Below, one piece after another: positions 1,191 through 52,860 of a DNA stretch of 52,860 bases (positions are counted from its first letter, which is position 1; each line of letters begins with the position of its first letter). This DNA comes from a virus. Its lineage: Duplodnaviria; Caudoviricetes. The DNA is taken from the IMG/VR virus record IMGVR_UViG_3300020044_001825, positions 1 to 52,860 of that record; one strand, given 5' to 3'. The position numbers and the translations under genes are program-made. Below the pieces are notes generated by a model. The model was given only the letters and a program-made list of their open reading frames with translations, ran no database searches and was not told the DNA's origin.

Positions 1191-1344
1191 GAAACCAATC
1201 TGGGACAAAGCTAGACCTAAGAGCCTCGGCGAGAGCAAGACGCTGTCATCGGCGGCTAAGTCATCCGCTAAGGCGGCAGCAAAGAGCGCCGGACGCCCTT
1301 ACCCCAACCTCGTCGACAACATGAGAGCGGCGAGGAAGAAATGA
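1180..1344 (+). CDS. Small basic protein, 54 aa (MQPKKPIWDK...AGRPYPNLVDNMRAARKK)
   Basis: Translated by hand, not in the ORF track. It overlaps the terL stop and has an ATGA overlap with the next gene. Confidence 0.75.
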   Translation: MQPKKPIWDKARPKSLGESKTLSSAAKSSAKAAAKSAGRPYPNLVDNMRAARKK

Positions 1345-16596: not shown

Positions 16597-19500
16597 ATGG
16601 CGGCTACAGGCTACACACCCATTCAACTGTACTACAGCACGACCGCGTCTGCTGTTCCTACTGCCGGAAACCTTGCGAGCGGCGAGTTGGCGATCAACAT
16701 CACCGACGGCAAGTTGTACTACAAGAACAACTCAGGCACAGTGACCCTGCTCGCCGGTTCAACCGGTTCTGGTCCTGCAGGCGGCTCTAACACTCAAGTG
16801 CAGTACAATAGTTCTGGAATTCTGGCTGGCTCTGCCAACTTTACGTTCAACGGCACTACTGTAACAATGGCTAACGATGCCTCTATCAGTGGTCTGACTG
16901 TTGGTCGTGGTGCTGGTGCTGTGGCTTCCAATACTGCTATTGGTGCGAGTGCTTTGTCGGCAAATACGACTGGTGTTCAAAACGCTGCTTTTGGTCTTAA
17001 CACTCTTGCGGCAAACACCACTGGTGGTTATAACGCAGCATTTGGCCCTGCAACAATGCAGAACCAAACGACAACCTCATATAACTCCGGTTTTGGTTAT
17101 GCAGTTCTTACATCTTCGGCTGGTGGCAATAATTCAGGATTTGGTTTTGCAGCATTAACTGCAAATACATCAGGCGCAAACAACGTAGCAATTGGCATGC
17201 AAGCCCTGCAAGCCAACACTACAGCTTCAAGCAACACCGCTGTTGGCTACCAAGCCGCTTATTCAAACGTAACAGGTACAAACCTTACAGCAATTGGTCG
17301 AGGTGCTTTGTACAACAACACAGCAGACAACAATACTGCTTTGGGTAAACTTGCTGGTTTTAGCAACACAACAGGTAACGCCAACGTGTTTGTCGGCTCT
17401 GAGTCTTCTGCATCTGGTTTTGCCGCTGGTTACAGCAACACAACTGGTTCTTCCAATACCGCAATTGGTGCAAATGCTCTTGGCTCAAACACCACAGCAG
17501 ATAACAACACTGCTGTCGGTTATCAATCCGCCTATTCAAACACTACTGGATACCAGAACACAGCGGTTGGACGTAGAGCGGGGTACAGTAATACAACTGG
17601 TTACGTAAACACAGCGGTAGGTGACCTTGCGCTTTACTCAAATACGACTGGCTATCGAAACACTGCAATCGGCTATCAGGCGGGTTATTCAATCACCGAC
17701 GGCACTGGCTTGGTTGCTGTGGGTGACCGTGCGTTGTTATCCAACACTGGAAACTTTAACACTGGCATTGGGTATCAAGCCCTCCAAGCCAACACCACAG
17801 CATCTAACAACACTGCTGTGGGCTATCAGGCGGGGTATGCAAACACGACTGGTTATAACAATAGCTATGTTGGTCAAGAAACGGGATATTCTGGAACAAC
17901 CGCCTTTTTCAACGTGGCAATAGGTACTAGCGCCCTGTACACCAACACTACTGGTGCAAACAATATAGCTATTGGTGTTTCTTCTTTAGTCTACAACACC
18001 ACCGCCTCTAACAACACTGCAATTGGTTTTCGGTCGGGGTTTTCAAACACCACTGGCGCTAACAATTTGTTTATGGGTAGAGAGGCTGGCTATTCAAACA
18101 CCACAGCATCAAGCAACACTGCTGTAGGTTATCAGGCAGGATACAGCAATACTACTGGCCCATATCTGACAGCACTTGGCTACAGGGCTGGCTACAGCAA
18201 CACTACCGCAGATCAAAACACTTTTGTTGGTTTTGATACTGGCTATGCAACTACTGGCGCAAGCAACACAGCAATGGGAGCGTTTGCGTTAACTGCCAAT
18301 ACCAGCGGCACAAACAATACTAGCGTTGGTACAGGATCAATGCTCACAGCTACCACAGGCTCATGGAACGCTGCTTATGGTAGGAATTCACTGCGTAATC
18401 AAACCACTGGAAACTACAACACCGCAGTTGGTGGAGATTCGCTCTACTCCAACACCACCACCAGCAACGGCACGGCTGTTGGGTATCGTGCGCTATACAG
18501 CAACACCACTGGTGGAAATACAGCGGTCGGTGCAAATGCTGGTTACAGCGCAACCAGCGCGGCTGGTTTAGTTATTATTGGCGAAAACGCCGGATACGGC
18601 ATCACCACTGGCGGCTTCAACGTCACCATTGGTGTTGACAGTATGTTTGCCACCACCACTGGCGCAAACAACATCGGTCTTGGAACATCTGCCCTTCGAT
18701 ACAACACCACTGGAGGCAACAATGTGGCGTTGGGTCATCAGGCGTTGTACACCAGTACCACGGCATCAAGCAACACTGCTGTAGGCACTCAGGCGTTGTA
18801 CGGCAATACGACGGGTGATGAATCAGTCGCAGTTGGTATGCAGGCATTGTATTCACAGACAACTGGACGAAATACAGCAGTTGGTTACCACGCAGGTCTT
18901 GATGTAACCACTGGTACTTACAACACGCTAGTTGGCGGCGAGACTGGTGAAAACATCACTACAGGCGGTTTTAACGTGGCCGTAGGCACTTTCTCGATGC
19001 GCCTCACCACCACAGCAGAAAGCAACACAGCCGTTGGCTATCAATCACTGTATTCAAATACCATCTCAACGGCAAACACAGCATTTGGCTATCAGTCGCT
19101 TTATGCATACAACAGAACTGCTGATAGTACAGGCAGAAATGCCGCCTTTGGTTATCACTCTTTGAAAAGTCTGACAACAGCGCAAGAAAACGCCGCATTT
19201 GGTACTTTTGCAGGGTTTAGTGTAACAACAGGAAATGGTAATACGTTGATTGGTGAAGAGGCGGGTTATGCCCTCACCACAGGTATTCAAAACACATACG
19301 TTGGTATTGCCTCTGGTAACTTGATGACCACAGGCTCGTACAACACTATCCTTGGTCGTTACTCTGGCAACGCAGGTGGCCTAGACATTCGCACAGCAAG
19401 CAACTACATTGTGCTGTCTGATGGGGCTGGGAATCCACGGGGATTTTTTGATAACAACGGTTCTTTCTTTGTTGGTAAAACTCAAGAAGATGGTACTCAA

Positions 19501-20127
19501 AACGGATTTCTTGCGACTGTTGGAACAAACGCATATGCCTTTATAACAAACAGTACGGCTAGTGGTAATTACGCTTTAGGAATAAACCGTCAAGCATCCG
19601 ATGGGGCGCTAATTGAATTTAGACAAGCAAACACAGCAGAAGGTAGTATTTCCGTTTCTGGCACAACCGTTTCATATAACGGCGGTAACTTATCTCGTTG
19701 GGCGCAGACTACAGCACCAAAAGATGAATCAATTGTCAAAGGTACAGTTTTGTCTAATCTTGATGAAATGAACGTCTATACAAAAGATGGGCAACCTGTT
19801 GCTAACGAGCAATTAAACAAAGTCAAAGTGTCTGACACAGAAGGCGATGTAAATGTTGCAGGTGTGTTTGTTAACTGGTCACATGATGAGCAACACAATG
19901 TTGACGAAATCAATATGGCAATGACTGGCGACATGATTATCCGCATTGCACAAGGGGTAACTGTTGTTCGTGGTGATTTGCTCATGTCTGCGGGCGATGG
20001 AACTGCAAAACCACAAGGCGATGACATTGTTCGTTCTAAAACTGTTGCAAAAGTAACTTCAAACCATGTTACTTGCACATACGCAGATGGCTCATATTGT
20101 GTGCCGTGTGTGCTGATGGCTTGTTAA
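16597..20127 (+). CDS. Long tail fibre/receptor-binding protein with ~14-aa beta-roll repeats and a putative C-terminal chaperone/autocleavage domain
   Basis: N-terminal PT..NLASGELAINITDGKLYYK anchor, dozens of NTAVGYQA.YSNTTG repeats, C-terminal GDLLMSAGDGTAKPQ domain. Confidence 0.82.
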   Translation: MAATGYTPIQLYYSTTASAVPTAGNLASGELAINITDGKLYYKNNSGTVTLLAGSTGSGPAGGSNTQVQYNSSGILAGSANFTFNGTTVTMANDASISGLTVGRGAGAVASNTAIGASALSANTTGVQNAAFGLNTLAANTTGGYNAAFGPATMQNQTTTSYNSGFGYAVLTSSAGGNNSGFGFAALTANTSGANNVAIGMQALQANTTASSNTAVGYQAAYSNVTGTNLTAIGRGALYNNTADNNTALGKLAGFSNTTGNANVFVGSESSASGFAAGYSNTTGSSNTAIGANALGSNTTADNNTAVGYQSAYSNTTGYQNTAVGRRAGYSNTTGYVNTAVGDLALYSNTTGYRNTAIGYQAGYSITDGTGLVAVGDRALLSNTGNFNTGIGYQALQANTTASNNTAVGYQAGYANTTGYNNSYVGQETGYSGTTAFFNVAIGTSALYTNTTGANNIAIGVSSLVYNTTASNNTAIGFRSGFSNTTGANNLFMGREAGYSNTTASSNTAVGYQAGYSNTTGPYLTALGYRAGYSNTTADQNTFVGFDTGYATTGASNTAMGAFALTANTSGTNNTSVGTGSMLTATTGSWNAAYGRNSLRNQTTGNYNTAVGGDSLYSNTTTSNGTAVGYRALYSNTTGGNTAVGANAGYSATSAAGLVIIGENAGYGITTGGFNVTIGVDSMFATTTGANNIGLGTSALRYNTTGGNNVALGHQALYTSTTASSNTAVGTQALYGNTTGDESVAVGMQALYSQTTGRNTAVGYHAGLDVTTGTYNTLVGGETGENITTGGFNVAVGTFSMRLTTTAESNTAVGYQSLYSNTISTANTAFGYQSLYAYNRTADSTGRNAAFGYHSLKSLTTAQENAAFGTFAGFSVTTGNGNTLIGEEAGYALTTGIQNTYVGIASGNLMTTGSYNTILGRYSGNAGGLDIRTASNYIVLSDGAGNPRGFFDNNGSFFVGKTQEDGTQNGFLATVGTNAYAFITNSTASGNYALGINRQASDGALIEFRQANTAEGSISVSGTTVSYNGGNLSRWAQTTAPKDESIVKGTVLSNLDEMNVYTKDGQPVANEQLNKVKVSDTEGDVNVAGVFVNWSHDEQHNVDEINMAMTGDMIIRIAQGVTVVRGDLLMSAGDGTAKPQGDDIVRSKTVAKVTSNHVTCTYADGSYCVPCVLMAC
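16930..19370 (+). repeat. Degenerate coding tandem repeats (~42 bp/14 aa, NTAVGYQA.YSNTTG)
   Basis: Directly visible in the translation; boundaries approximate. Confidence 0.85.
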
Positions 20128-39559: not shown

Positions 39560-39928
39560 TTAAAGCGGTTTGTCATCCGCTGCTTCAAAATCGTCGTAGT
39601 CGAGACCCATCTGACCAAAGTCCCAACGCTGAGGCATGTACGAGAACGAGTTACGATCCCAGCTCAGCACATTGATAATATCGTCCTGCTCGCTTGCAAT
39701 AACCATGCACACTGCGCACAGCGTGGGGTCACCCACCATCAGCAAGTGATCGCCGTTCTGCCATTCAGACATGACCCGACGCGCCTTAGCGATCATGGTT
39801 GTCGTATCATAAGGTTTACGCGGATTACCGAAGACTGCACGCAACGCGCCGTACTTCTTCGCGTCCGAGAGGTCTTTATTATTGTCTACTTGTACTACGT
39901 AGACAGTTCGTTGATTACCGTGTTCCAT
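39560..39928 (-). CDS. Hypothetical protein, 122 aa
   Basis: Between the polymerase and the ATPase; DLSDAKKYG, DHLLMVGDP. Confidence 0.7.
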   Translation of the reverse strand: MEHGNQRTVYVVQVDNNKDLSDAKKYGALRAVFGNPRKPYDTTTMIAKARRVMSEWQNGDHLLMVGDPTLCAVCMVIASEQDDIINVLSWDRNSFSYMPQRWDFGQMGLDYDDFEAADDKPL

Positions 39929-41756
39929 TTTTAGCTTTCCTAGTTTTCTTAGGTGGTGGTGCCACTAAAGCGATCTGCTCCGAAGTGAGATACTGCGAGC
40001 AGCCGACCGCTATGGCGATTTTTATCGCCTCTTTGTTGTACCAGTCATAATCTAAATCAGCTGGGTGTGTGGTTTTGTCAAGTAAAGTCATGCAGGCTTT
40101 TGCGCCCTCGGTCTTTGGAACCTTGTTGCCGTTTGACGCATACTTGATAGGCTCATTGTTAGCATCTGTTGATTGGTACCACCGCACAACTTTACCGAGG
40201 TAGACGCCGTTCTGCTGACCGCCGCCGGTAACATTTCGGGCGCTGATAAAGTCTGTAAACGGGGCAGATCTGATCGTGTCTTCAAATGGAGTACCGTCCG
40301 CCAGCCACGCCCCTACAGCGTCAGACGAGACCTGAGCCGTTGGGTTTTTCTTAAGAGATAGCGGCGCATAGATACCTTTCACTTTCAGTTTCCGGTCAGG
40401 TTTGACCGCAATGTAATTGTTGACGTCTTTGACAGCGAGGGCGCGATAGGGCGTGTATTCAAATGAGAAACCAGACACCTCGCTGAACTTGTTGACAACC
40501 TTCTCAACCAGCTCTTTCTGCTCCTTAGTATAACGAATCGCAATGCCGTCAGTGTTAGCTGACAGGGTCAAAGCCCCTGCTCGCTCAAGCCACTCAATCA
40601 ACATGAGCAGGGTGAACTGTCCTGTCAGCGTGACCGCCAACATTAAGTCCGGCGAGTACAACACCGAGTAACGGCTGGCGAGCTTGCCGAACGTGCCATT
40701 CAGCGAAATCTTCAGCGTTGCGTCGGTGATCTTGTCACCACTGCGCTTTGCCTCTAGGCGGCGCTCGTAAATTTTGCGGTACTCTTCAACGAAGCGCTTA
40801 CCTAACGCAACCGGCACAAAGCCGCACTCAAGAATGATACTCGGGTAGAACGAAGCCGCGTCAATGTCACACATGTGATCATCACCGGCGATGTGGCACA
40901 CCTGCCTATCATGTACGCTGTGAATACCGCCCACGCCGAGCTGGTACTCACCTGCGCCAAACTTGATTGTCCGCAGTCCGAGGAAGTCCGGAAGCTGAAC
41001 GTGTCCGGTAACGGGGTTCATGTTGAAAACGTGCTCAGAGACGCGATCAAGCAGACCCTGTAGCTCGGCATCCATAAACTTCAGGAAGGCAGGAGGCGTA
41101 TATCTGACCGTCTTGGGGATGTCATTCTCTTGACGCTTGAGACCCATGCTAGTAATGTACGCCTGCTCAGCCATCTGCGAGTCCGACTTGCTACGCATGT
41201 CAGCCCCGTAGCGGCGGCTCATCTCAACGCGCAGCATAAGCTCACCCTCAAGCTGATTCAACAGCTCGGCGGTGGTGTCAACGTCGTTATGACAATATTC
41301 AAGCAGCACTGGCTCTTGATCAGGGGTGATCATCTCGTCGTGGGCGATCGGCATGTCCTGCAACTTAGGCATGTGCATGCGAGCGCCATAGGCTTTCAGA
41401 CCTACGAATGACGGGGCGACCTCAATCAAGTCAATGTCATCAAGAATAACGTCACGTAAATTGTGCTTGCGCATCGCATTCCACGGCGACAGGCGATTAG
41501 TGATGATGTCATCAGCAATACGCTTGATCTCAATCTCAGTCCTGCCGAGGCAGAACGCCGCCACAACCGCGTTGTCAAACGACTTACTGTTGAACCCGAT
41601 AAAGGTGCTGTCAGCCTGCTGCACGAAGCGCGTGAGCCGAGCCGGTGCGTCGTCATCATGACGCCACAGGTCAAACCACTCGCCCGTCTCAATGTTCTTT
41701 GCGCAGAACAAAGTCCGGTTGGGCAGAGTTTCAGTATCAAACACCCAAGTGCCCAT
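39915..41756 (-). CDS. DNA polymerase, family B-like, with 3'-5' exonuclease
   Basis: Exo motifs FDTET, GFNSKSFD, YCHNDV. Pol motifs DIDAASFYPSII, KISLNGTFGK, SANTDGI. Start taken at ATG 41756. Confidence 0.88.
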   Translation of the reverse strand: MGTWVFDTETLPNRTLFCAKNIETGEWFDLWRHDDDAPARLTRFVQQADSTFIGFNSKSFDNAVVAAFCLGRTEIEIKRIADDIITNRLSPWNAMRKHNLRDVILDDIDLIEVAPSFVGLKAYGARMHMPKLQDMPIAHDEMITPDQEPVLLEYCHNDVDTTAELLNQLEGELMLRVEMSRRYGADMRSKSDSQMAEQAYITSMGLKRQENDIPKTVRYTPPAFLKFMDAELQGLLDRVSEHVFNMNPVTGHVQLPDFLGLRTIKFGAGEYQLGVGGIHSVHDRQVCHIAGDDHMCDIDAASFYPSIILECGFVPVALGKRFVEEYRKIYERRLEAKRSGDKITDATLKISLNGTFGKLASRYSVLYSPDLMLAVTLTGQFTLLMLIEWLERAGALTLSANTDGIAIRYTKEQKELVEKVVNKFSEVSGFSFEYTPYRALAVKDVNNYIAVKPDRKLKVKGIYAPLSLKKNPTAQVSSDAVGAWLADGTPFEDTIRSAPFTDFISARNVTGGGQQNGVYLGKVVRWYQSTDANNEPIKYASNGNKVPKTEGAKACMTLLDKTTHPADLDYDWYNKEAIKIAIAVGCSQYLTSEQIALVAPPPKKTRKAKNGTR

Positions 41757-41757
41757 T

Positions 41758-42027
41758 TCAGTCTTGATTGACATAGCCGCGAGTCGGCTCAGCGCCGTCA
41801 TTGCAGAGCGCATCAGCCTTACGCTGCTCGATCTCAATCAGCTTCTCAAGGAAGTGAACGGCTTTCTGCAAGTCTTGAATCGGGTTACCTTTGAGGTAGC
41901 AACGCTCAACGTACTTAGTAGCCGCGCCCTGAAAGTAATTGAGACCCAAGCGATTGACGCGATCCCAGTGTTCCTCGCCGCCGTGCTTGTAGTGATTACC
42001 GCCGACCTGTTTATCATTCGCGCTCAT
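41758..42027 (-). CDS. DUF3310 family protein (related to T7 gp1.7-type nucleotide kinases)
   Basis: QVGGNHYK...YFQGAATKYVERCYLKG...DLQKAVHFL. Confidence 0.8.
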   Translation of the reverse strand: MSANDKQVGGNHYKHGGEEHWDRVNRLGLNYFQGAATKYVERCYLKGNPIQDLQKAVHFLEKLIEIEQRKADALCNDGAEPTRGYVNQD

Positions 42028-42512
42028 GCTGCGTAGTCCTTAATCATGTTGAAAATTTCGCGCTCGCGACCGACCAGAATCAGCTCTTCCGCGTAGCTGA
42101 TGTAGCGGTCAAATACGCGGCGCATACGCTTGTTACCTAATGAGATCTCCCGAGCGCAAAACAGCGCCCCCTGAGCTACGTCAGCGAGCTTGAGAGTGCG
42201 CTTGTCTTCAGGCGAGAGGTGAGGCATGACGATTCCGGCAGCGGTCATAAGGCGCAGCTCTAATTCATCAACCTTACCGCCGATGCCGAACTCACGCTTA
42301 GCAGGGGAGGGGATGTCGCCGGTCTGGTGCTCGGCTAAATCATGAAAGAGCGCCGCCATCAGTAATTGACGACTCGCCATCGGGTCAAACATCAAGCACA
42401 ACATAGCGACGCCGTGCGAGTGGTGACCGACGGTCTCAGACACGAGCGTAGTTACGGTATGGTAGCGCTTGACTTCGCTTCCAGCCAGAATAAAATCGAG
42501 AGTATGTTTCAC
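42024..42512 (-). CDS. HD-domain nucleotide phosphohydrolase (YfbR-like)
   Basis: VKRYH, ETVGHHS, ALFHDLAE..TGDIPSP.K, LKLAD. GTG start after GGAG. Confidence 0.85.
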   Translation of the reverse strand: MKHTLDFILAGSEVKRYHTVTTLVSETVGHHSHGVAMLCLMFDPMASRQLLMAALFHDLAEHQTGDIPSPAKREFGIGGKVDELELRLMTAAGIVMPHLSPEDKRTLKLADVAQGALFCAREISLGNKRMRRVFDRYISYAEELILVGREREIFNMIKDYAA

Positions 42513-42544
42513 AAAAAGTTCTCCAGTTAGCAGTTATGTGAGCA

Positions 42545-42574
42545 ATTATAGCTCACATTTCTCACACAAAGCAA
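42545..42574 (-). promoter_or_regulatory. Sigma70-like promoter TTGCTT-18-TATAAT; -10 box flanked by an 8-bp inverted repeat
   Basis: ATGTGAGC 42536-43 and GCTCACAT 42551-58 bracket the -10 box. Confidence 0.7.
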
Positions 42575-42575
42575 A

Positions 42576-43613
42576 TTATTTTTTCTCAGCCTTTCGCAAC
42601 TCGTTCAGCTCGTCATCTTCCTCTTTGATCTTGCGTGCGTGGTCACGGCGGTCAATCCAATCAAATGCGGCGCGTTTCCAATCACTAGCGCGGATCTTAG
42701 CGGCGTAGCTACGACCGTCACCTGCGTGGATCTTACGTACGCGACTGATCATAGCCAGAGGGTGAGCCACGTGCTCAAAGAACGGGTTAGCATAATGAAT
42801 GCGCTCGTTGTACGGGTCGTGGCAGAACATCTCACACTCCGCTAGGAACAGCTTGTACTCGCCGTTGAGCATGATAGGTAAGGGGCGCACCTCACCTTTA
42901 CTGTAGAGGTCGTAGCTCTCTGCGTCAGGCGGTGAAGCCAAGTAATCTTTCGCATTGTAAAGCTCAGTGTACAAGTGGAAATTGTTGCTCACCTGACGGT
43001 ACACGCCCATATGCATACCGATAGCGGAAGCGACGAACTCCTGCACAAAACTGAAGTGAACCGCGTTAGCGCCGTACGCACCCCACCAGATGTCATTCGA
43101 CCGGTTATACACTGTCATGTTCAACCGGTTGTTACGCGTGTCAAATATCATCTGCGTGTTACACGCTTTGTCTTTGGTCTTCTTAGTGAGGTCGGCTTCG
43201 TCCCAGATTTGAACGACCGCCTGACGGGTTGCAGGGTCTCTGCGCAACAACTTGATAACCTCATCAAGCTGGTCACGTCCAAAGTGCTTACGCCAGCGGT
43301 AGCCATAAGCGGCGTTGAACGTCTTGCCGTCGTCGCTGAACTCGCCCATGCGCTTGTTGAACTGCTGCAGGAACGCCACATCGTTACGCCCTGCTAGCAT
43401 CCAGATTGACTCCATCAGGTGAAAGATCGGGTTAGCGTCGCGCCCCTTATGAAACAGCACACGCTCGAACGGGTACTTATAAACAGTGGTAACCGGCTCA
43501 GGGTACACGAGAGCGGGACCATTGCGGGTCTGCTCAGGTTGTAGGTTGAGCACTTTGAGCTTCCAGAATATCTCACTAAAAGCCTGATTGACGTTACGTA
43601 CGACTAATTCCAT
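42576..43613 (-). CDS. Thymidylate synthase homologue, probable dUMP hydroxymethylase
   Basis: AAYGYRW, TRQAV, catalytic Cys in DKACN, RSND...GAN (Asn, dUMP-type), NFHLY; adjacent to the 5-hmdU kinase gene. Confidence 0.82.
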   Translation of the reverse strand: MELVVRNVNQAFSEIFWKLKVLNLQPEQTRNGPALVYPEPVTTVYKYPFERVLFHKGRDANPIFHLMESIWMLAGRNDVAFLQQFNKRMGEFSDDGKTFNAAYGYRWRKHFGRDQLDEVIKLLRRDPATRQAVVQIWDEADLTKKTKDKACNTQMIFDTRNNRLNMTVYNRSNDIWWGAYGANAVHFSFVQEFVASAIGMHMGVYRQVSNNFHLYTELYNAKDYLASPPDAESYDLYSKGEVRPLPIMLNGEYKLFLAECEMFCHDPYNERIHYANPFFEHVAHPLAMISRVRKIHAGDGRSYAAKIRASDWKRAAFDWIDRRDHARKIKEEDDELNELRKAEKK

Positions 43614-44534
43614 TTAGAACTCCGTTTCTGGTTGGTAGGTTGTTTTAGGTTTACCCTCGCTGAGAACAGCTCGGCAGTATTTGCTGAATTCGCACATGCA
43701 GTTCTGCACATCATGCAGCGTCATGTCTACGATTTCTAATTTGTCAACGATCTCGCCATAGACGTTACTCAGCTCGGCGTTAAACTCTTTTTGCTTCCAC
43801 GTAGCGAACGGCGCTCTGCCGAGCAGGTAGTTGAGACCGCGTGAACTCCCTGGACCGATAGGCGCGTAGGTGTACAAATCTTCAACGTCCATTCCCGTGT
43901 AGGTCAAATCAGCAGCCACTTGACCGGCTATGAAAGTACTAATGCCGAAGCACTTGCTCAACTCGGCTACAAACTTCTCAATCGACATCACGCTATCAGC
44001 GTTCCACAACGCCGCTCTAACATTGTCGGCGTTCTCAATAGCGCTGCCGATGATGTACTTTGCGACTGCCTTAGACTTGTTGCCTCCTGGTTCCATCTTA
44101 GTCGGGTAGAGCATATACGCGCCGGAGTAGACCTTCTTACCGTCATTCTTGATGCGCTCAAGCGTATGCTCAAACATGTCAGCGTCAAAGTCTTCAGGGG
44201 CGCAGGGGATGACACCCTTTTTCATCAGCGCCTGTAGCGTGGGTGGCCAGTTGATCAGGCGGGCGATCAACAGCGTGAACCACAGGTGCTCGTCACCACT
44301 AGCGGTCGCTGGCTCAATCAGCTTGTCAATCACCCACTGCGAGACGCGGTCGTCGCTGCGGTGAATATTGGTGAATTTGTACTTAGCGAGCACGGGGTCT
44401 TTAGTCCACGGGGCGCTGTGACCGTTCTCACGGGCGAGGCGAATAGCCTCACGCTCCCAGATGAAGTAAAGCAGACCCCCCATCGAGCATACCGTCTCCG
44501 GTGTCGGCATAGGATAAGGGCAGTTGTCACGCAT
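43614..44534 (-). CDS. 5-hmdU DNA kinase (aGPT-Pplase1 family)
   Basis: WTKDPVLAKYKFTNIHRSDDRVS, FIAGQVAADL, GPGSSRGL, DVQNCMCEFSKY. Confidence 0.82.
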   Translation of the reverse strand: MRDNCPYPMPTPETVCSMGGLLYFIWEREAIRLARENGHSAPWTKDPVLAKYKFTNIHRSDDRVSQWVIDKLIEPATASGDEHLWFTLLIARLINWPPTLQALMKKGVIPCAPEDFDADMFEHTLERIKNDGKKVYSGAYMLYPTKMEPGGNKSKAVAKYIIGSAIENADNVRAALWNADSVMSIEKFVAELSKCFGISTFIAGQVAADLTYTGMDVEDLYTYAPIGPGSSRGLNYLLGRAPFATWKQKEFNAELSNVYGEIVDKLEIVDMTLHDVQNCMCEFSKYCRAVLSEGKPKTTYQPETEF

Positions 44535-45108
44535 TTTCGTTATCTTTCAAATAGGTTACAACGCCCGAGATAGGGTCTTGCCAATCTAGGAAACGCACGT
44601 CATAGCCGCCCGCCTCAGTTAGTATTTCGGCGCTCCTGTGACATTGGTCATACGCGGTGCGCATAGTCTTGTCAGGGTCAAATACTTTCTCATTACCCGC
44701 CGCCGCGCGACGAGCTAACACTCTCTCAAGGCAGACCTCCCAAGGGGTGTCCAAGAATGAGAATATCGCGCCATGGTCTTTCAGTATCGGAGCCACATGA
44801 CCGCCGCTGCTTGACTTGCTCATCAGCAACCCTTCAACGAGCACATGACCATGACCATGCGCCTTTACCACGCGATCAGCGATCTCCTCTTGCGTCTTGA
44901 TCCCGTCTGCGCCGCCGCATGTGTTTTCGTAGCTACCTACTACAAACACAGGAGTCATAATACCCCAAGCAGAGGCGTCTACTTTGTAACCCAACGGGCG
45001 GTCAGGTTTACCACCCAGCGCCTGAGTCGGTAGCTTAGTGAGAAAGCGCCGCACGATTGTGGTCTTGCCAGAACCATTACAGCCGCGAATGTTGACAATC
45101 TGGGTCAT
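44527..45108 (-). CDS. P-loop nucleotide kinase of the base-modification cluster
   Basis: NIRGCNGSGKTT Walker A, GGADGI, VLVEG, FLDTPWEVCLERVLARR lid. Confidence 0.78.
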   Translation of the reverse strand: MTQIVNIRGCNGSGKTTIVRRFLTKLPTQALGGKPDRPLGYKVDASAWGIMTPVFVVGSYENTCGGADGIKTQEEIADRVVKAHGHGHVLVEGLLMSKSSSGGHVAPILKDHGAIFSFLDTPWEVCLERVLARRAAAGNEKVFDPDKTMRTAYDQCHRSAEILTEAGGYDVRFLDWQDPISGVVTYLKDNENA

Positions 45109-46106
45109 AGGAAGTACTCCGCTCTATAGGGTGAACCGGTCTCAGGGAACACAGCGGCTTTCTGCTTCACAGTCATAGGTGAACTCTCGCATTCAACACG
45201 CAGCCAGTCGGGCAGCAGTTGAGACCGCATGTCTTTGAACACGTCGGTGTATGCGTCTTGACCGCGTAGATCAGCCCACTCAATACGCTCTTGTGCCATG
45301 TCAGCGTAAACTCCTGGGTACCGACGACCGAAGAAATGATTCTTGAAGGTGCACAGGTTTGACTCCATAGTGAAGCGACCCGCATTAGGCGCGTCAGGGT
45401 GAGCAGCTTTGAAGTCATCAATGACCTTGTCAGCTCCCGCCGCGAGGAAGCCGCACATCAAGTTGAATTTAGGGTAATTGCCGTCCTGCCCGTTAGGTAG
45501 GCGCTTGTCCCAGACCAGCTCATCTTTGCCAATCAAGAACAGCATCCCGTTGCGGTGTGACTTGCTACCTGACTTGTCACTGAACAGCAGGTCATCACAG
45601 TCAGCGCCGTAGCCGTTCAGGTGTACGTACTCTAGGTAGCTGAACGATGACAGGCGACCGAAGCTATGATAGCGGTTACGTACGATGTCCCACAGCGCCT
45701 CGTAGGGCTTACCAGTCAGCATCGCCTCTTGAGAGCCGAACTCCTCTACCAACTTAGCGTAAGCCTTGATAGCGGGCAGCGTGTCTTTCTTTTGATACCG
45801 GCGGTCGGTGTCAAACTGAAGCGTGTCCCACTCGGCGTTGAACCATTCTTCAAACTTAGTCAGCGCGGCGCTAGCTGGAGGAACCATCGGCAGCTGATCA
45901 AATATGCGCAGCGACGTGATTGGGTTTTGAGTCATGCCGTTCAAGAATGCGAACCAGAGCTTCTGCTCGGCGTTCCACTTGTAGCGGCGAGCGAGTTCAG
46001 GCATATACAGGTAGACGAGTCCTGGCATTACCCCGTGCTCAAGGTTCATCTTGTAAAGCGCGGTGAAATACTCTGACCGGTTTTCCGGCAGGCGGTAATC
46101 TTTCAT
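45105..46106 (-). CDS. Amino acid:DNA transferase (aGPT-Pplase2 family, HhH-glycosylase-like fold)
   Basis: FDTDRRYQK, FGRLSSFSYLE, SKSHRNG, ESNLCTFK, RRYPGVYAD; supported by cluster context. Confidence 0.75.
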   Translation of the reverse strand: MKDYRLPENRSEYFTALYKMNLEHGVMPGLVYLYMPELARRYKWNAEQKLWFAFLNGMTQNPITSLRIFDQLPMVPPASAALTKFEEWFNAEWDTLQFDTDRRYQKKDTLPAIKAYAKLVEEFGSQEAMLTGKPYEALWDIVRNRYHSFGRLSSFSYLEYVHLNGYGADCDDLLFSDKSGSKSHRNGMLFLIGKDELVWDKRLPNGQDGNYPKFNLMCGFLAAGADKVIDDFKAAHPDAPNAGRFTMESNLCTFKNHFFGRRYPGVYADMAQERIEWADLRGQDAYTDVFKDMRSQLLPDWLRVECESSPMTVKQKAAVFPETGSPYRAEYFL

Positions 46107-47059
46107 GATGCTTTCCTAGTGTAAAAAGGTTCAACAATCTTCGTGTCGGGGGCGCTGCCCACAATCCAGAAGGCGGTCTGGTCATCATAATCTAACTGGT
46201 CATGGTGTGTCAACCAGCGCCACATCTTAGCCTCGTAGGTCGGGTGAAATTTGATACCGTCATAGTTCTCACCGGTAAAGTGATCGCTGTACTTGCTGTA
46301 GCCGCTATCGTGCAGGCTATAGTGCTTCCACTTGAACGGCAGCTTATCAACGTCCACGCCGATGTACGCAAGGCGCTGACGCATCCAACCACGCTTGTCG
46401 GGACCGATACCTATGGTGAACAACTCCTCAATGTTGTGCGAGTCGCGGCTCAAGCCGAGCATGATGCTCGTCAGCGAGTTACAAGACCCCGCAGGGGCGA
46501 TGAGGCGCTTGACTTCAGGCGGCATGTTAGTAGTCTGATGAGCGCCGACCTCGTGAAACTTACGCACATCTTCCTCAGGGTAGCGGTCATGCGGCACAGT
46601 GATACCGTACTCAACCACGAGCGAGGTAGGTTGCGTCAGGTCAACAACTTTGCGTTGCAAGATAGGATTGTACGGACCAGAAGCGAACTCAAACTCAGCA
46701 TCAAAGCCGTAGGCAATGCGAGGGTTCTCATGACGCAACACAGTCTCAGGCTTGCTATAGACGATCTGCCGAGCGCGTAAGCCATAATGCGCACCCACGA
46801 TGGCGCTCATGCTCAGCTGAGGAGACTGAATGCTAGCGCCAGTAACGATGTGGGTCTTACCCTGACGAAATTTGTTGACATACCAAATCAGCTGGCGCAT
46901 CTTTGAGCCGTTCGGACCACTGTAGCCGAGGGGGGCGAAGTAATCATCACGCTTGAACCACATACCCTTGCGGTTCTCCCACGGGGTGTGCGTGCCGAGG
47001 TGTTGCTCCCACTTGACCAAGTTACGGTCAATAGCTAACTCAGGAAATACTGTGTTCAT
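46103..47059 (-). CDS. PLP-dependent enzyme (fold type II), probable decarboxylase acting on modified DNA
   Basis: WFKRDD...NGSKMRQ PLP lysine, SPQ, PAGSCNS, FHPTYEAK, FWIVG. Confidence 0.78.
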   Translation of the reverse strand: MNTVFPELAIDRNLVKWEQHLGTHTPWENRKGMWFKRDDYFAPLGYSGPNGSKMRQLIWYVNKFRQGKTHIVTGASIQSPQLSMSAIVGAHYGLRARQIVYSKPETVLRHENPRIAYGFDAEFEFASGPYNPILQRKVVDLTQPTSLVVEYGITVPHDRYPEEDVRKFHEVGAHQTTNMPPEVKRLIAPAGSCNSLTSIMLGLSRDSHNIEELFTIGIGPDKRGWMRQRLAYIGVDVDKLPFKWKHYSLHDSGYSKYSDHFTGENYDGIKFHPTYEAKMWRWLTHHDQLDYDDQTAFWIVGSAPDTKIVEPFYTRKAS

Positions 47060-47280
47060 TCTGAATCCTCTCGTACGAATACTGCGTAACCGGCGTCCTC
47101 AGGGAAAACCGCCCCATGTGACATGACCAGATTAGCGTCAATCACCTCGTTAAAACCATCAACTGGGCAGATGCGGAAAGTGAGGTCACCTGCCTCAGTC
47201 CTCATAGCCGCGATACCCACGATACCCTTACCAGTGGTGAACCACTTGACATCAGCCAATACAGGCGCGTTCTCGTTCAT
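47056..47280 (-). CDS. Hypothetical protein, 74 aa
   Basis: GGAG RBS and ATGA coupling. Confidence 0.65.
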   Translation of the reverse strand: MNENAPVLADVKWFTTGKGIVGIAAMRTEAGDLTFRICPVDGFNEVIDANLVMSHGAVFPEDAGYAVFVREDSE

Positions 47281-47705
47281 TTCTTGACTCCTTTAATGTT
47301 AACCAGCATGAAGCTGCGTGCGTTGATTTCAATGATCTTCTGCTCACCGACCTTAGCGGCGGCGTAGAGCTGTGCAGTGAGGCGGTCTTGCTGAGCGCTA
47401 GTCATCCACTCAGGATTGTCGCGCCACATCTGATACGCATTCTTCCACGTGTCGCCGGTGTTCACGCAGATGATGGTGCGGTCGAGCTTGAGCGAGTCCT
47501 TCATGACGGGGCGGGTAGAGGTGTCAACCACTTGTTTAATCACTTTGCTAGTAGGTACAGGGGAGAGCAAGCTCTCAAAAACCTCAGCACAACGCCGCTC
47601 GGCGGTTTTACGGTCACTAAAGCGCTTGACCGGTGTTGTGCTGTGGCGGTTATAAAACGACACTAATTGTGGAGTCGTCATGCTGGAAAAGTTTACTGTA
47701 TTCAT
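47277..47705 (-). CDS. Hypothetical protein, 142 aa
   Basis: GGAG RBS; LVSFYN...VKRFSDRKTAERR N-terminal motif. Confidence 0.7.
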   Translation of the reverse strand: MNTVNFSSMTTPQLVSFYNRHSTTPVKRFSDRKTAERRCAEVFESLLSPVPTSKVIKQVVDTSTRPVMKDSLKLDRTIICVNTGDTWKNAYQMWRDNPEWMTSAQQDRLTAQLYAAAKVGEQKIIEINARSFMLVNIKGVKK

Positions 47706-47730
47706 TTCAAATCTCCAAGGAAAATTCTAA

Positions 47731-47841
47731 TTAAAAAGGGGCTTTTTCGGTCTGCTCGATTTGCTTGCGAGCATACTCACGGATTTGTTTAGCAGTCCAC
47801 GGCACGGGACCAGTAGCGGGTGGGAATGGCCAGTTGTTCAT
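47731..47841 (-). CDS. Hypothetical peptide, 36 aa (MNNWPFPPATGPVPW...KAPF)
   Basis: Translated by hand; ATGA overlap with the upstream gene. Confidence 0.55.
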   Translation of the reverse strand: MNNWPFPPATGPVPWTAKQIREYARKQIEQTEKAPF

Positions 47842-50055: not shown

Positions 50056-51609
50056 ATGCAATTAAGACCTTACCAAGACGAAGCCACCCAAGCCGCTATA
50101 GCCGCGCTAGGGAAGGGGATCAACCCCGTGCTTCAGCTCGCCACCGGTACAGGCAAGTCTCTCATCATCGCCGCTATAGCTAGCCTCTATAGGGCAGCGG
50201 GCAAAAACACTTGGGTACTCACCCACGTTCAACAACTCGTCAAACAAAACGCCTCCACCTACACTCGCTATAGCGAGCTAGAGCCGGCAATCGTCTGCGC
50301 AGGACTGAACCGCAAGGACGTTGACGGGCAAGTTACCTTCGGCACCATTCAAAGCATGATGGGCGTCCTAGCTGAAATGCAAGCGCCTGACCTCATCATT
50401 ATAGACGAAGCGCACCGCGTCCCGCACAACGAGGGCGAGCCGACGCTCTACGAATCAATACTGCGCCGTTACCCCGCTGCTCAACGCGTCGCTATGACCG
50501 CTACGCCGTGGCGAATGGACAATGGGATCATTTACGGTGACGGGGAGCAGTTCTGGTTTGACCGCCTCGCCTACAACTACCCCGTGCCCCGCGCCGTTCA
50601 CGACGGATGGCTGTGCCCGCTAGTCGGCGTTGAGACCGCGTTTCAACTCGACCTAGAAGACGTGGGTGTGAACGGGGACTTTGTGCAAACCGAAGTCGGT
50701 GACAAGCAGATGAACGACTGGCTTGAGTCAATGGCTGAATCATTGCTCACCCTCGCCGGCAACCGGAAGCATCTCGCGGTTTACTGCCCGACCATTACCG
50801 CCGCCATGCGTGCCGCTAACGCGATCACTAAGGTGACGGGTTGGTCAACAGAAGTCATGGCGGGCAGCATGAAGGGCGTTGAGCGGGATGACATCATGCA
50901 CCGGTTCCTGAGCGGTAAAAGCCGCGTGCTCTGCTCGGTTGATATGATTACCACCGGCTTTGACTTCCCTGCGCTGGATTGCATCGTGTGCCTGAGGCCA
51001 ACTCTCTCCTCCTCTCTGTGGGTTCAGATTCAAGGTCGGGGTACTCGCCTACACGACAGCAAAAAGAACTGCCTCGTGCTTGACTTTGTGGGTAACCTGC
51101 AACGCTTAGGCGGCGTAGACATGTATGAAAAGTTCTACCGCGAGCGCCTTGACGCTGAAGCGGAAGAGCTACCCGCAGTGCCCACTAAGCCTCACGTCAA
51201 AAAAGAGCGCAAGGTTTATCCTGGTGTGCGCACCATCATACCCATTGACCCTATGACAGGACGTGAGGCTACTGATGACTCAGTCATCACCGCCAAGGTC
51301 AGCAACGTCAACTGCGTCGCGGTGTTTACGCGGCGTAACCCCAATCAACCGGTGCTGCTCGTGCAGTACGCCTGCATCACAGATGAGGGGGCGCGTATTG
51401 ATGCTTCTACTTTCATCAGCACCGAAACACCCACATCGCAAACGGTAGCATTTTTCAAAAGACGCGCCCTTGCGGTAAACTTACCCTCCCCTGCTCGTTC
51501 ACTCACTTGGCAACTGAAAGGCGCTCGACAACCGGTCGCGGTTACTGTACGCAAGTCTGGGCGCTACTGGAATGTGCTTGAGGAGTATTTCAACGGAGAA
51601 ACAGAATAA
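50056..51609 (+). CDS. Superfamily 2 DEAH helicase (RadD/YejH-like)
   Basis: LRPYQ, ATGTGKS, IIDEAH, MTATP, TTGFDFP, QIQGRGTR. Confidence 0.9.
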   Translation: MQLRPYQDEATQAAIAALGKGINPVLQLATGTGKSLIIAAIASLYRAAGKNTWVLTHVQQLVKQNASTYTRYSELEPAIVCAGLNRKDVDGQVTFGTIQSMMGVLAEMQAPDLIIIDEAHRVPHNEGEPTLYESILRRYPAAQRVAMTATPWRMDNGIIYGDGEQFWFDRLAYNYPVPRAVHDGWLCPLVGVETAFQLDLEDVGVNGDFVQTEVGDKQMNDWLESMAESLLTLAGNRKHLAVYCPTITAAMRAANAITKVTGWSTEVMAGSMKGVERDDIMHRFLSGKSRVLCSVDMITTGFDFPALDCIVCLRPTLSSSLWVQIQGRGTRLHDSKKNCLVLDFVGNLQRLGGVDMYEKFYRERLDAEAEELPAVPTKPHVKKERKVYPGVRTIIPIDPMTGREATDDSVITAKVSNVNCVAVFTRRNPNQPVLLVQYACITDEGARIDASTFISTETPTSQTVAFFKRRALAVNLPSPARSLTWQLKGARQPVAVTVRKSGRYWNVLEEYFNGETE

Positions 51610-52860
51610 TGACGAGCAAGACGCCTAAGCATGTGTGGGCAGTAGACACTGACGGACCAAAAACTTTAGACTTCGCGCTAGCTTATGCGAGGCTCGGTTG
51701 GTACGTGTTGCCCGTGTGGTCGGTGGACTCGCATGGCCAATGCCGGTGCGGTCGCCCTAACACTGAGAAAGGTCACAAGGCGGGCAAGCACCCTCAGTCT
51801 GAGTTAGTTCCGCACGGGCATCAAGACGCAACTGTTGATGAACAAGTCATCAAGGACTGGTGGGCTACTGACCCCGACGCGGGTATCGGTATCTCCCTCG
51901 CCGAGTCAGGTCTGCTGGCGCTGGACATTGACCCGCAGAACGGCGGTGTTGACTCACTGGCAGAGCTAGAAGCTGAACATGGCGTCATGCACTCCGACTG
52001 TACGGCGGTGACTCAAGGCGGCGGGGAGCATAGGCTGTTCACCGCTGATGAGGACATGACGTATCCTGGCACACTGGGTAAAGGGCTTGACCTGAAGCAC
52101 CATGGCTATATCTGCGTCGCCCCTACGCTCGGACCCTCCGGTGATTACAAGTGGCAACAAGGGCGCTCGCCGCTCAGTCAAACCCGTCCGGCAAAGCCCT
52201 CACCCTTACCTCAGCTGATAGCGAGTAAGGCACGACCTCCAGTGAACTATAGCCTGACCGAGCGCGGTGGCGTTCCGGTGGCAACGGCTCAGACCTTTGA
52301 TGACCTGCGCTCGGCGCTCAAACACGTTGACGCTGATGACTACACAACGTGGGTCAACGTCGGTATGGTGCTCAAGCCTTACGGCGAGAACGGCTACAAA
52401 ATTTGGACCGAGTGGGCGGCGACCAGTGACAAGTTTGATGCCGCCGCGCAGAGGCGCAAGTGGGAGCGTGACATCAGTACTCCGCACTCAATCACTTACC
52501 GCTCAATCTTCCGCATGGCGATTGACAACGGCTGGGCAGGTAACACTCACGAAGCACCACAAGCCGCAACGACTCCTGACGGTAAACCCGCAGTTCACCC
52601 GCTCAGTCTCAAGAACTCAGTCGCCTCGGGCGCGGGTGAAGTCAACGTCTTTGAGTACGTGTACGAGGACTTTATGTCTACCGGTGTCAACGTAGTCGCC
52701 GGTGCTCCTGGTGTCGGTAAGACGACGCTCATCGTACCTATGGCGTTAGCCACTGCGCACCTCTGCCCGCATGACTACACGCTCAAGCCCGCCGTTAGGC
52801 GCAACGTCATCATCATAACCGAGTCGGTCGTTCAGGTTCAACGGGTCATTTACTCGCTCT
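51609..52860 (+). CDS. Bifunctional primase-polymerase + PriCT-2 + AAA helicase, 3'-truncated by the window edge
   Basis: Translated by hand from ATG 51609: ALAYARLGWYVLPV, CRCG, GKHP, LLALDIDPQNGG; DDYTTWVNVGMVLK; Walker A GAPGVGKTT. Confidence 0.88.
   Translation, partial: MTSKTPKHVWAVDTDGPKTLDFALAYARLGWYVLPVWSVDSHGQCRCGRPNTEKGHKAGKHPQSELVPHGHQDATVDEQVIKDWWATDPDAGIGISLAESGLLALDIDPQNGGVDSLAELEAEHGVMHSDCTAVTQGGGEHRLFTADEDMTYPGTLGKGLDLKHHGYICVAPTLGPSGDYKWQQGRSPLSQTRPAKPSPLPQLIASKARPPVNYSLTERGGVPVATAQTFDDLRSALKHVDADDYTTWVNVGMVLKPYGENGYKIWTEWAATSDKFDAAAQRRKWERDISTPHSITYRSIFRMAIDNGWAGNTHEAPQAATTPDGKPAVHPLSLKNSVASGAGEVNVFEYVYEDFMSTGVNVVAGAPGVGKTTLIVPMALATAHLCPHDYTLKPAVRRNVIIITESVVQVQRVIYSL

Follow-up and report, generated by a model that had tools for sequence, protein, structure and literature searches.

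A mosaic phage operon with a predicted ViI-type pathway for thymidine hypermodification

In the uncultured phage that is represented by IMG/VR record IMGVR_UViG_3300020044_001825 (Caudoviricetes), we identified five adjacent genes that probably form a working pathway for hypermodifying thymidine in DNA after replication, of the type known from Salmonella phage ViI. We will use "the window" for the whole stretch of DNA that we analyzed, which is this single virus record (52,860 bases; CheckV completeness of 97%; no end repeats). By protein similarity, the operon is a mosaic: the kinase, the helical protein, the thymidylate synthase (TS) homolog, and a downstream HD-domain protein resemble those of phages M6 and PaMx11, while the amino acid:DNA transferase (ADDT) and the pyridoxal phosphate (PLP) enzyme resemble those of ViI. 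Hypermodified thymidines shield phage DNA from restriction enzymes, and they supply DNA-modifying enzymes for biotechnology.

A compact operon on the minus strand

The five open reading frames (ORFs) lie back to back on the minus strand at 42576-47059, exactly where an earlier note on this DNA had placed them. In the direction of transcription, they encode a predicted fold-type II PLP-dependent enzyme similar to ViI gp226 (318 amino acids; 46103-47059); an ADDT, or aGPT-Pplase2 (333 amino acids; 45105-46106); a P-loop kinase that is predicted to act on 5-hydroxymethyldeoxyuridine (5-hmdU) in DNA (5-HMUDK; 193 amino acids; 44527-45108); a helical protein of the HMUDK_hel or aGPT-Pplase1 type (306 amino acids; 43614-44534); and a TS-fold enzyme that is predicted to be a dUMP hydroxymethylase (345 amino acids; 42576-43613). 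At each of the four junctions, the ORFs overlap by 4-8 bases or abut, and the same is true of most junctions in the wider run from two small upstream ORFs to the DNA polymerase. This arrangement is compatible with translational coupling. Apart from one family assignment, which we correct below, the five genes stand as the earlier note described them, but the unit does not end at 42576, as it had supposed: it runs on through the gene for an HD-domain nucleotidase-like protein (42024-42512) to the replicative DNA polymerase (39915-41837). Scans of the window for promoters and terminators found 12 and 24 sites, which is not above the expectation from shuffling (10.6 and 15.2), so we consider these genes to be an operon because of how they are packed and because their order is conserved. 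When we compared the operon's DNA to 50,697 phage records, the matches were limited to short stretches of the TS gene at 66-73% identity.

ViI-like transferase and PLP enzyme

The putative ADDT matches PF18724 (65.1 bits versus a cut-off of 26.2; E = 1e-17), and this model recovers all four of the characterized transferases (M6 gp51, PaMx11 gp46, ViI gp247, and the PhiW-14 gene). It also belongs to phrog_3271 (E = 1.1e-63). It is 26% identical to ViI gp247 (E = 7e-32, or E = 6.5e-29 in a direct sequence search), and a direct search of M6, PaMx11, and Caulobacter phage RW gave no match at E <= 10. A tree with the enzymes of M6, ViI, and PaMx11 had been proposed as a check, and we built one for the ADDT, with 24 sequences. 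The window's clade, Mycobacterium phage Lolalove, and the Ackermannviridae are separated from M6, PaMx11, and PhiW-14 by a split with support of 100/100, with long branches, which places the window on the ViI side. Within that side, Lolalove gp3 groups with the window's clade at weak support (80/48), and the window's clade is separate from that of the Ackermannviridae. Lolalove gp3 is also the closest protein to the window's ADDT in a cultured phage, and the best match among the 50,697 phage records, at 34.6% identity. Judging from these records, the window's clade has no cultured or characterized member.

In a MAFFT alignment of the 24 sequences, Asp177, Glu248-Ser249, Cys252, and Lys255 of the window's ADDT align to Asp175, Glu243-Thr244, Cys247, and Lys250 of PaMx11 gp46, and these residues are invariant in 13 members of the clade. 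In PaMx11 gp46, Cys247 is the proposed nucleophile that attacks C6 (PMC11472151). Metal ligands of the ADDT or Pplase2 family are described in PMC13458397, and we infer that the family's Glu-Thr pair corresponds to the ligands described there.

The predicted structure of the ADDT (pLDDT of 81.5) has a structure of PaMx11 gp46 (8z2m) as its top match from Foldseek (E = 0.016; TM scores of 0.50/0.57). When aligned with VIA-align to another structure of PaMx11 gp46 (8z2n), the model gives Z = 15.7 and a root-mean-square deviation of 3.8 Å over 247 residues, versus Z = 8.8 for the next family. The solved structure of PaMx11 gp46 has a fold that contains a helix-hairpin-helix, and the model shares it. 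Comparisons of sequence profiles did not recover this similarity: a profile of 13 ADDTs from the clade (a shallow alignment) hit nothing at E <= 10 among all PDB sequences, and in hhalign, the same profile matched an alignment of the M6, PaMx11, and PhiW-14 enzymes with a probability of 0.3 (both alignments are shallow). The link to PaMx11 gp46 comes instead from the Pfam model, from the joint MAFFT alignment with its shared catalytic residues, and from the predicted fold; these uphold the original identification of this protein as an amino acid:DNA transferase.

The putative PLP enzyme is 31% identical to ViI gp226 (YP_004327553) across 369 columns (E = 2e-59), and it belongs to phrog_3650 (E = 3.3e-74). 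Its Lys53 aligns to Lys92 of the ViI protein, within a common NGSK-x-RQ motif, and is invariant among 19 members of its clade; Lys92 is the proposed Schiff-base lysine of gp226 (PMC8989533). An AlphaFold model that was built on the 19 clade sequences (pLDDT of 83.1; pTM of 0.84) has D-cysteine desulfhydrase (4d8w; E = 1.1e-10) and a homolog of 1-aminocyclopropane-1-carboxylate (ACC) deaminase (1j0a; E = 8.8e-10) as its top matches from Foldseek, with TM scores of about 0.58. The predicted fold is thus fold-type II (tryptophan synthase beta-like), and Lee et al. also reported 1j0a as a template for ViI gp226 (PMC8989533). Matches to NCBIfam were below the models' thresholds and were to the ACC deaminase / D-cysteine desulfhydrase family (E = 2e-4 to 8e-9). 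The similarity to the PLP enzyme of M6 (gp52) reaches E = 0.0017 at best. The relationship to gp226, the aligned lysine, and the fold-type II model, rather than any match in Pfam, support the view that this is a PLP enzyme, and we predict, by analogy with gp226, that it decarboxylates an amino-acid:thymine conjugate.

As the earlier note had remarked, we did not find the other known classes of tailoring enzymes. Using tblastn, we compared the radical S-adenosylmethionine (SAM) enzyme M6 gp53, the flavin lyase PaMx11 gp47, and the acetyltransferase PaMx11 gp48 to the window, and the best hit had E = 1.0. Six-frame searches of the window with PF04055 (Radical_SAM) and PF00583 (Acetyltransf_1) gave no hits at E <= 1, while the positive controls were detected in 14 of 14 genomes. 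Given these results and the relationship of the ADDT and the PLP enzyme to gp247 and gp226, the description of this locus as a thymidine hypermodification operon with ViI-like content holds up.

The core genes are related to those of M6 and PaMx11

According to tblastn, the P-loop kinase is 32% identical to PaMx11 gp49 (E = 1.2e-15) and 28% identical to M6 gp54 (E = 1e-11). It is also 28.5% identical to PhiW-14 gp37 (E = 9e-7). It has a Walker A motif (GxxGxGKT) at residues 9-16. M6, PaMx11, and the window all have the kinase gene immediately ahead of the HMUDK_hel gene, and in phage SP10 the two are fused (PMC5889632, Table 3). Because 5-HMUDKs of the M6 and PaMx11 type are described as active kinases (PMC8989533), the homology and the motif sustain the identification of the 193-residue protein as a kinase. 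The earlier note had also considered the product of 43614-44534 to be a 5-hmdU DNA kinase. We find that it is instead the helical, non-kinase protein: it matches PF18723 (155.7 bits versus a cut-off of 25) across 272 of 281 profile positions, it belongs to phrog_2396 (E = 3.1e-54), it is 31% identical to M6 gp55 (E = 1.6e-38), and it is a homolog of PaMx11 gp50. The operon has one kinase, not two.

The kinase gene belongs to phrog_800 (E = 8.8e-17), which is labeled as "terminase small subunit." In phrog_800 and in RefSeq, this label is attached to the window's kinase, M6 gp54, PaMx11 gp49, and PhiW-14 gp37. For 5-hmdU DNA kinases, this is a propagated misannotation, and it would conceal the pathway from keyword searches.

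The TS homolog matches PF00303 (Thymidylat_synt; 81.1 bits versus a cut-off of 24.3), as expected from its original assignment to the family, and also phrog_5131 (E = 1.3e-109). It is 45% identical to M6 gp58 and to PaMx11 gp51, 43.6% identical to SPO1 gp29 (E = 8e-54), and 38.7% identical to the homolog from ViI, versus 25.8% for ThyA from E. coli (E = 8e-15). We take SPO1 gp29 to be a dUMP hydroxymethylase. Cys151, Arg171, Asp174, His213, and Tyr215 of the TS homolog align to Cys146, Arg166, Asp169, His207, and Tyr209 of ThyA. At the position of Asn177 of ThyA, Asn is characteristic of enzymes that act on uracil, while Asp is found in cytosine-specific enzymes. The TS homolog has Asn at this position (Asn183), while T4 gp42 does not, and in an alignment from phmmer, MilA has Asp. 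The TS homolog and all of the rows of the phage hydroxymethylase type share three features: Asn stands at the position of His147, the column of Trp80 is a gap, and the C-terminus has a long extension. Among PDB sequences, the best hit was to MilA, a CMP 5-hydroxymethylase (E = 3.5e-23), and the best thymidylate synthase was at E = 1.2e-13. We also compared the TS homolog to seven equivalog models for thymidylate synthase from NCBIfam, and all of the scores were below the models' cut-offs (50-75 bits versus 108-405); the best were 74.9 bits versus a cut-off of 174.55 and 70.4 bits versus 327. Taken together, the TS homolog looks like a dUMP hydroxymethylase. The earlier note had named the synthesis of dTMP by this protein as an observation that would undo the proposed pathway; insofar as sequence can tell, the equivalog scores and the closer relationship to SPO1 gp29 than to ThyA point the other way.

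The HD-domain protein matches PF12917 (40.3 bits versus a cut-off of 25.9) and is a homolog of YfbR-like 5'-deoxynucleotidases, with a similarity to the NCBIfam model for 5'-deoxynucleotidase that is below that model's cut-off (E = 2.9e-7). It is 36% identical to M6 gp59 and 32% identical to PaMx11 gp52. It is a candidate for an enzyme that clears dTMP or other dNMPs.

Conservation of the operon in related phages

By scanning IMG/VR, we found at least 80 loci that encode an ADDT of the window's type (55-99% identity), so the operon marks a large group of uncultured freshwater phages. The counts that follow are over those loci that have enough flanking sequence for the feature in question. The kinase, the helical protein, and the TS homolog follow the ADDT, in this order, in 68 of 69 loci (the exception is L077), and the HD gene is downstream in 52 of 54. 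A PLP gene is upstream of the ADDT in 52/66 loci: within 300 nucleotides in 35 and beyond a larger gap in 17. In the remaining 14, which have at least 1300 nucleotides of upstream sequence each, there is no upstream PLP gene (L027, L028, L042, L045, L051, L052, L058, L060, L061, L062, L078, L083, L085, and L089). In several of these, such as L058, an ORF that we call orf142 (see below) is directly followed by the ADDT. In the phages without the PLP gene, the amino acid or amine conjugate may be the final product.

The gaps between the PLP and ADDT genes contain three kinds of genes: a family of 250-residue proteins, DHH phosphoesterases, and small ORFs. The ORF of about 250 residues, which is absent from the window, is present in 10 loci (L063:6226-6996, L064:1670-2416, L066, L067, L068, L071, L073:3726-4493, L074, L075, and L077), with 62-100% identity among its members. 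This family has no match in Pfam, PHROG, or NCBIfam; in Atlas, it lies beside clusters of class I SAM methyltransferases (scores of 0.94-0.95). It may be an additional tailoring enzyme, of a class that the accessible parts of the literature cited here do not include among the enzymes of thymidine hypermodification. The DHH/DHHA1 phosphoesterase genes are at L036:4029-4850 and L053:6054-6992 (phrog_4771; E = 2.5e-102 and 2.2e-65).

Two of the loci without a PLP gene have a gene for a Tet_JBP oxygenase (E = 5.3e-21) upstream of the ADDT (L083:1135-3209 and L085:4940-7014). These two loci also have a distant relative of the 250-residue protein (20-26% identity) directly upstream of the ADDT, and in the 1.2-1.5 kb of sequence downstream, we found no match to the window's kinase. 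From their predicted genes, L083 and L085 represent a variant pathway, fed by a dioxygenase, with an ADDT from the same clade.

The kinase falls into two allele classes in these phages: it is at least 70% identical to the window's kinase in 25/76 loci and under 55% identical in 51/76. The kinase of L015-L020 shares 48% identity with the window's, yet the flanking ADDT and helical protein are 84-86% and 85-92% identical, which looks like the replacement of a single gene within the operon.

The proposed pathway and its amino acid donor

Based on homology, the TS-fold enzyme would convert dUMP to 5-hydroxymethyl-dUMP, and host kinases and the phage's polymerase would then place 5-hmdU in the DNA instead of thymidine. 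The neighboring HD nucleotidase-like protein probably contributes by lowering the pool of competing dTMP. By analogy with the proteins from M6, PaMx11, and ViI, the P-loop kinase would convert 5-hmdU in DNA to its monophosphate, 5-phosphomethyldeoxyuridine (5-PmdU). The earlier note had described this step as pyrophosphorylation, but Lee et al. (2021) found monophosphorylation to 5-PmdU (PMC8989533). By the same analogy, Cys252 of the ADDT would attack C6, the phosphate would be expelled, and an amino compound would join to the exocyclic methylene; a Cys-C6 adduct and an exocyclic methylene intermediate are described for this family in PMC11472151. Last, the PLP enzyme would decarboxylate the adduct, which would be bound to DNA and linked by its side chain.

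What might the amino compound be? Decarboxylation by the PLP enzymes requires a free primary amine (Lee et al., PMC8989533), and ViI gp226 was shown to decarboxylate O-serinylthymidine (O-SerT) on DNA (PMC8989533). M6 meets this requirement by means of its radical SAM isomerase, whereas ViI attaches serine through its oxygen and so has no need of one (PMC8989533). Since the window has a gp226-type PLP enzyme and no isomerase was found, the appended amino acid would be expected to keep its alpha-amine free and to be linked by its side chain. The single most likely outcome is that serine is attached to form O-serinyl-T and then decarboxylated to 5-(2-aminoethoxy)methyldeoxyuridine (5-NeOmdU), although we do not go so far as to call this probable, and a different donor that is linked by its side chain has almost the same likelihood. 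Three points leave the choice of donor unsettled: the ADDT is just 26% identical to gp247, the residue after the catalytic cysteine differs, and residues in the pocket can switch the donor.

Several observations weigh against a ViI-type pathway, or against serine as the donor. The PLP protein has no match in Pfam at E <= 0.01, including to PALP, and fold-type II enzymes more commonly perform beta-elimination or beta-replacement. The kinase's match to Pfam's HMUDK_HMUD1 (PF18748) is below threshold (19.7 bits versus a cut-off of 27; E = 6.7e-4). The flavin enzyme was sought by tblastn with PaMx11 gp47 alone, not with a family model, and was not found by this route. The record's estimated completeness is 97%, not 100%, so there could be a relevant gene outside of it. 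The residue after the catalytic cysteine of the ADDT is Thr253 in the window, Trp288 in ViI, and Lys in M6. The similarity of the ADDT to gp247 is weaker than the 1e-50 that defines an edge in the 2026 network of Pplase2 proteins, and in that study, Pplase2 enzymes from the same cluster with about 35% identity use different donors (diamines), and exchanging two residues of the pocket is enough to change the donor (PMC13458397). Finally, the public data (24 runs) consist of assembled contigs, which are silent on base modifications, and the phage is uncultured, so the chemistry is inferred.

The most serious alternative keeps the same route and changes the donor to threonine, homoserine, cysteine, or a diamino acid that is linked by its distal group, which would yield an undescribed relative of 5-NeOmdU. 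The separation of the window's ADDT clade from that of the Ackermannviridae, with long branches, fits with this idea, as do the low identity to gp247 and the replacement of ViI's Trp288 by Thr253 next to the pocket. Also, few pocket residues set the donor, and many of the clusters in the Pplase2 network are uncharacterized, according to the available text of PMC13458397. On the other hand, the only characterized pair of enzymes that resembles the window's ADDT and PLP enzyme uses serine, and nothing positive favors any particular substitute. We regard a donor of this kind as quite possible, though we lean against it. We would say much the same of a broader proposal: that the donor is something other than serine, glycine, putrescine, and 1,3-diaminopropane; that, with the gp226-type decarboxylase, it gives rise to an undescribed modification; and that sister phages vary the product by dropping the decarboxylase or by adding the methyltransferase-like gene.

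A further explanation is that the PLP enzyme produces or alters the free donor, or catalyzes an elimination, so that the mature base would be the conjugate itself or some other derivative. Its relatives by fold are desulfhydrases, deaminases, and enzymes of beta-replacement, and since 14/66 loci have no PLP gene beside the ADDT, the ADDT's product can evidently be the end point in sister phages. But the protein is homologous across its full length to gp226, which decarboxylates O-SerT on DNA, and the arrangement of the PLP gene directly beside the ADDT in 35/66 loci, and upstream with a gap in 17 more, also favors decarboxylation of the conjugate. An alternative role for the PLP enzyme seems unlikely. 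We are slightly more skeptical that the helical protein is a second group transferase, which would lead to two different modified thymidines in the DNA. In favor of this idea, SP10 has the Pplase1 clade alone, fused to the kinase, and yet makes alpha-glutamylthymidine; both clades are present in ViI and PhiW-14 (PMC5889632, Table 3), and the helical gene is retained in 68/69 related loci. However, the homologous M6 gp55 was dispensable for forming the glycine adduct in lysates (PMC8989533), and in Pfam this domain now counts as the kinase's helical domain. It is very improbable that there is no modification pathway at all; in that case, the TS homolog would be an ordinary thymidylate synthase, or else a dCMP hydroxymethylase, with unrelated or decayed genes beside it. 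The generic thymidylate synthase family is the sole model whose cut-off the TS homolog reaches, but the protein is 44% identical to SPO1 gp29 versus 26% to ThyA; it has Asn at the Asn177 position and shares the change at His147 and the gap at Trp80 with the phage hydroxymethylase-type proteins; its equivalog scores (50-75 bits) are far from the cut-offs (108-405); and the ORFs are all intact and are conserved over 80 loci.

Comparison with characterized and predicted systems

The 5-NeOmdU pathway of ViI (a Kuttervirus) comprises the kinases gp67 and gp243, the Pplase1 protein gp160, the serine:DNA transferase gp247, and the PLP decarboxylase gp226. The window encodes the same classes of enzymes, likewise without a radical SAM enzyme, and its ADDT and PLP enzyme are homologous to gp247 and gp226. 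In contrast to the window's operon, the ViI genes are scattered across the 157-kb genome of a myovirus and include two kinases rather than one. The ViI transferase and PLP proteins are also longer, with insertions (411 and 424 residues, versus 333 and 318), and the window's kinase, helical protein, and TS homolog are nearer to those of M6 and PaMx11 than to those of ViI.

The order of the kinase, helical, TS, HD, and polymerase genes is the same as that of gp54, gp55, gp58, gp59, and gp62 in M6 and of gp49, gp50, gp51, gp52, and gp55 in PaMx11, including the position of the polymerase relative to the TS and HD genes. What differs is the set of tailoring genes ahead of this core: an ADDT, a PLP enzyme, and a radical SAM enzyme in M6; an ADDT, a flavin lyase, and an acetyltransferase in PaMx11; and the ViI-type PLP enzyme and ADDT in the window. 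Pseudomonas phage M6 (a Yuavirus, with a siphovirus virion) makes 5-(2-aminoethyl)deoxyuridine (5-NedU) with the cluster gp51-gp59. Its core proteins are 28% (kinase), 31% (helical), 45% (TS), and 36% (HD) identical to the window's, but its ADDT (gp51) is of the glycine type, its PLP enzyme (gp52) is a different one, and it has the radical SAM isomerase gp53. PaMx11, which makes 5-acetylaminomethyldeoxyuridine (5-AcNmdU) with the cluster gp46-gp52, shares the core and its order with the window, as well as the fold of the ADDT and its catalytic Cys, Asp, Glu, and Lys. The PaMx11 tailoring enzymes are the flavin lyase and the acetyltransferase, and homologs of either were not found in the window.

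Two other groups of phages have partial resemblances. Pelagiphages of the HTVC023P type (clades V, VIII, and IX) have a TS gene and an aG/PT-PPlase1 gene near the polymerase, together with a podovirus-type virion module and Yuavirus-like replication genes (PMC9599517). The gene set given in the accessible part of that paper consists of TS, Pplase1, a 5'-deoxynucleotidase, and a glucosyltransferase, and it does not name a kinase, Pplase2, or PLP enzyme. When we searched the first 50 kb of HTVC023P, we found no match to the window's five pathway proteins. Also, these genomes are marine (PMC9599517), while the window's relatives are from metagenomes of lake water. Mycobacterium phage Lolalove (genes 1-4, including the ADDT gp3) and Rhodococcus phage Tonitrus have TET/JBP-type clusters. 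In these phages, 5-hydroxymethyluracil is made on the DNA, by a hydroxylase with a ParB-like protein, instead of by a dUMP hydroxymethylase, and no PLP gene adjoins the ADDT, unlike in the window.

Published work already covers the logic of the pathway, the families to which its enzymes belong, and the idea that its cassettes are combinatorial, and contigs from IMG/VR and GOV were surveyed in 2021. What we add is modest. The window combines an M6-type core and ViI-type tailoring genes in one operon, although the figures or supplements of the papers from 2021, 2022, and 2026 may already show this. The other modest additions are an ADDT clade without a cultured member and the variation in tailoring cassettes within one freshwater lineage. 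The combination of an M6-type core with a pair of ViI-type tailoring genes gives a concrete example of the swapping of cassettes that was proposed in 2021. With five compact and intact genes, the operon is a convenient target for reconstitution in vitro, as a way to identify the donor used by this clade.

Virion type and other genes in the window

The window's capsid protein is 82.6% identical to that of Caulobacter phage RW and 39.6% identical to that of pelagiphage HTVC023P. The corresponding values are 50.8% and 29% for the portal protein and 36% and 32% for the large terminase (TerL). From the relationship to RW, a first guess at the host would be a freshwater alphaproteobacterium such as Caulobacter. 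Electron micrographs, available for HTVC023P only, show a podovirus, and the genes with which this phage replicates are similar to those of Yuavirus siphophages (bioRxiv 10.1101/2019.12.14.876532). The homology of the capsid, portal, and terminase makes it plausible that this phage is podovirus-like (HTVC023P-related or Riverwalk-like), as the earlier note had proposed. There are weak matches to PHROG families for the tail sheath (E = 7.1e-5, 22.5 bits) and the tape measure protein (E = 2.1e-5), so the tail type is formally open. Searches of RW for the ADDT, the PLP enzyme, and the TS family found none. The earlier note had also suggested that this virion type would extend the range of thymidine hypermodification. 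In a table from 2018, phages with 5-HMUDK were exclusively myo- and siphoviruses, but the extension was largely pre-empted in 2022, when TS and aGPT-Pplase1 were reported in HTVC023P-type podovirus genomes (PMC9599517).

Both ends of the record lie within genes, which is consistent with the CheckV estimate: 3-1190 encodes the C-terminal part of the large terminase, and 51609-52859 encodes a primase that runs off the record. We found no tRNA genes in the window.

Upstream of the five pathway genes are the two small ORFs that the earlier note had reported at 47056-47705 and had suggested might be accessory. Both are present on the minus strand, but nothing supports such a role. The first, orf142 (47277-47705), has no match in Pfam or NCBIfam, and only its N-terminal part matches phrog_4730, a family without a known function. 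Atlas proposed DUF3489 for orf142 (score of 0.81), which is below the reliable range and at a level that shuffled proteins reach, so we did not use it. Among the 60 related loci with at least 2000 nucleotides of upstream sequence, 48 have orf142 upstream on the same strand. The second, orf74 (47056-47280), is poorly conserved (10/60 loci) and has no match in Pfam, PHROGs, or NCBIfam.

At the other end of the conserved block, between the HD gene and the polymerase, a small protein (41758-42027, minus strand) matches DUF3310 (PF11753; 24.2 bits versus a cut-off of 24). It is syntenic with PaMx11 gp53 and M6 gp61, and the identities from tblastn are 52% for M6, 45% for HTVC023P, and 40% for PaMx11. 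The polymerase, which ends the block and is also on the minus strand, belongs to phrog_1252 (E = 2.7e-162) and is 37-40% identical to polymerases from many phages.

Elsewhere in the window, an ORF of 1150 residues (1341-4793) lies between the genes for the large terminase and the portal. Its matches are limited to phrog_7595, over the N-terminal part, and a weak hit to DUF6973, and we found no counterpart in RW or HTVC023P. A tailspike-like protein of 1176 residues (16597-20127) has 8-10 repeated stretches that match PHROGs for virion or tailspike proteins. Neither RW nor HTVC023P yielded a match to this protein, so it is probably the determinant of host range.

Contigs from four independent metagenome studies, three of which are labeled as lake water, cover all 30 of 30 bins across the operon, and the pieces are mostly 95-99% alike, which points to near-identical strains in these samples. 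In runs X1-X4, the region 41800-47800 is split into many short contigs, and this fragmented assembly suggests microdiversity among strains.

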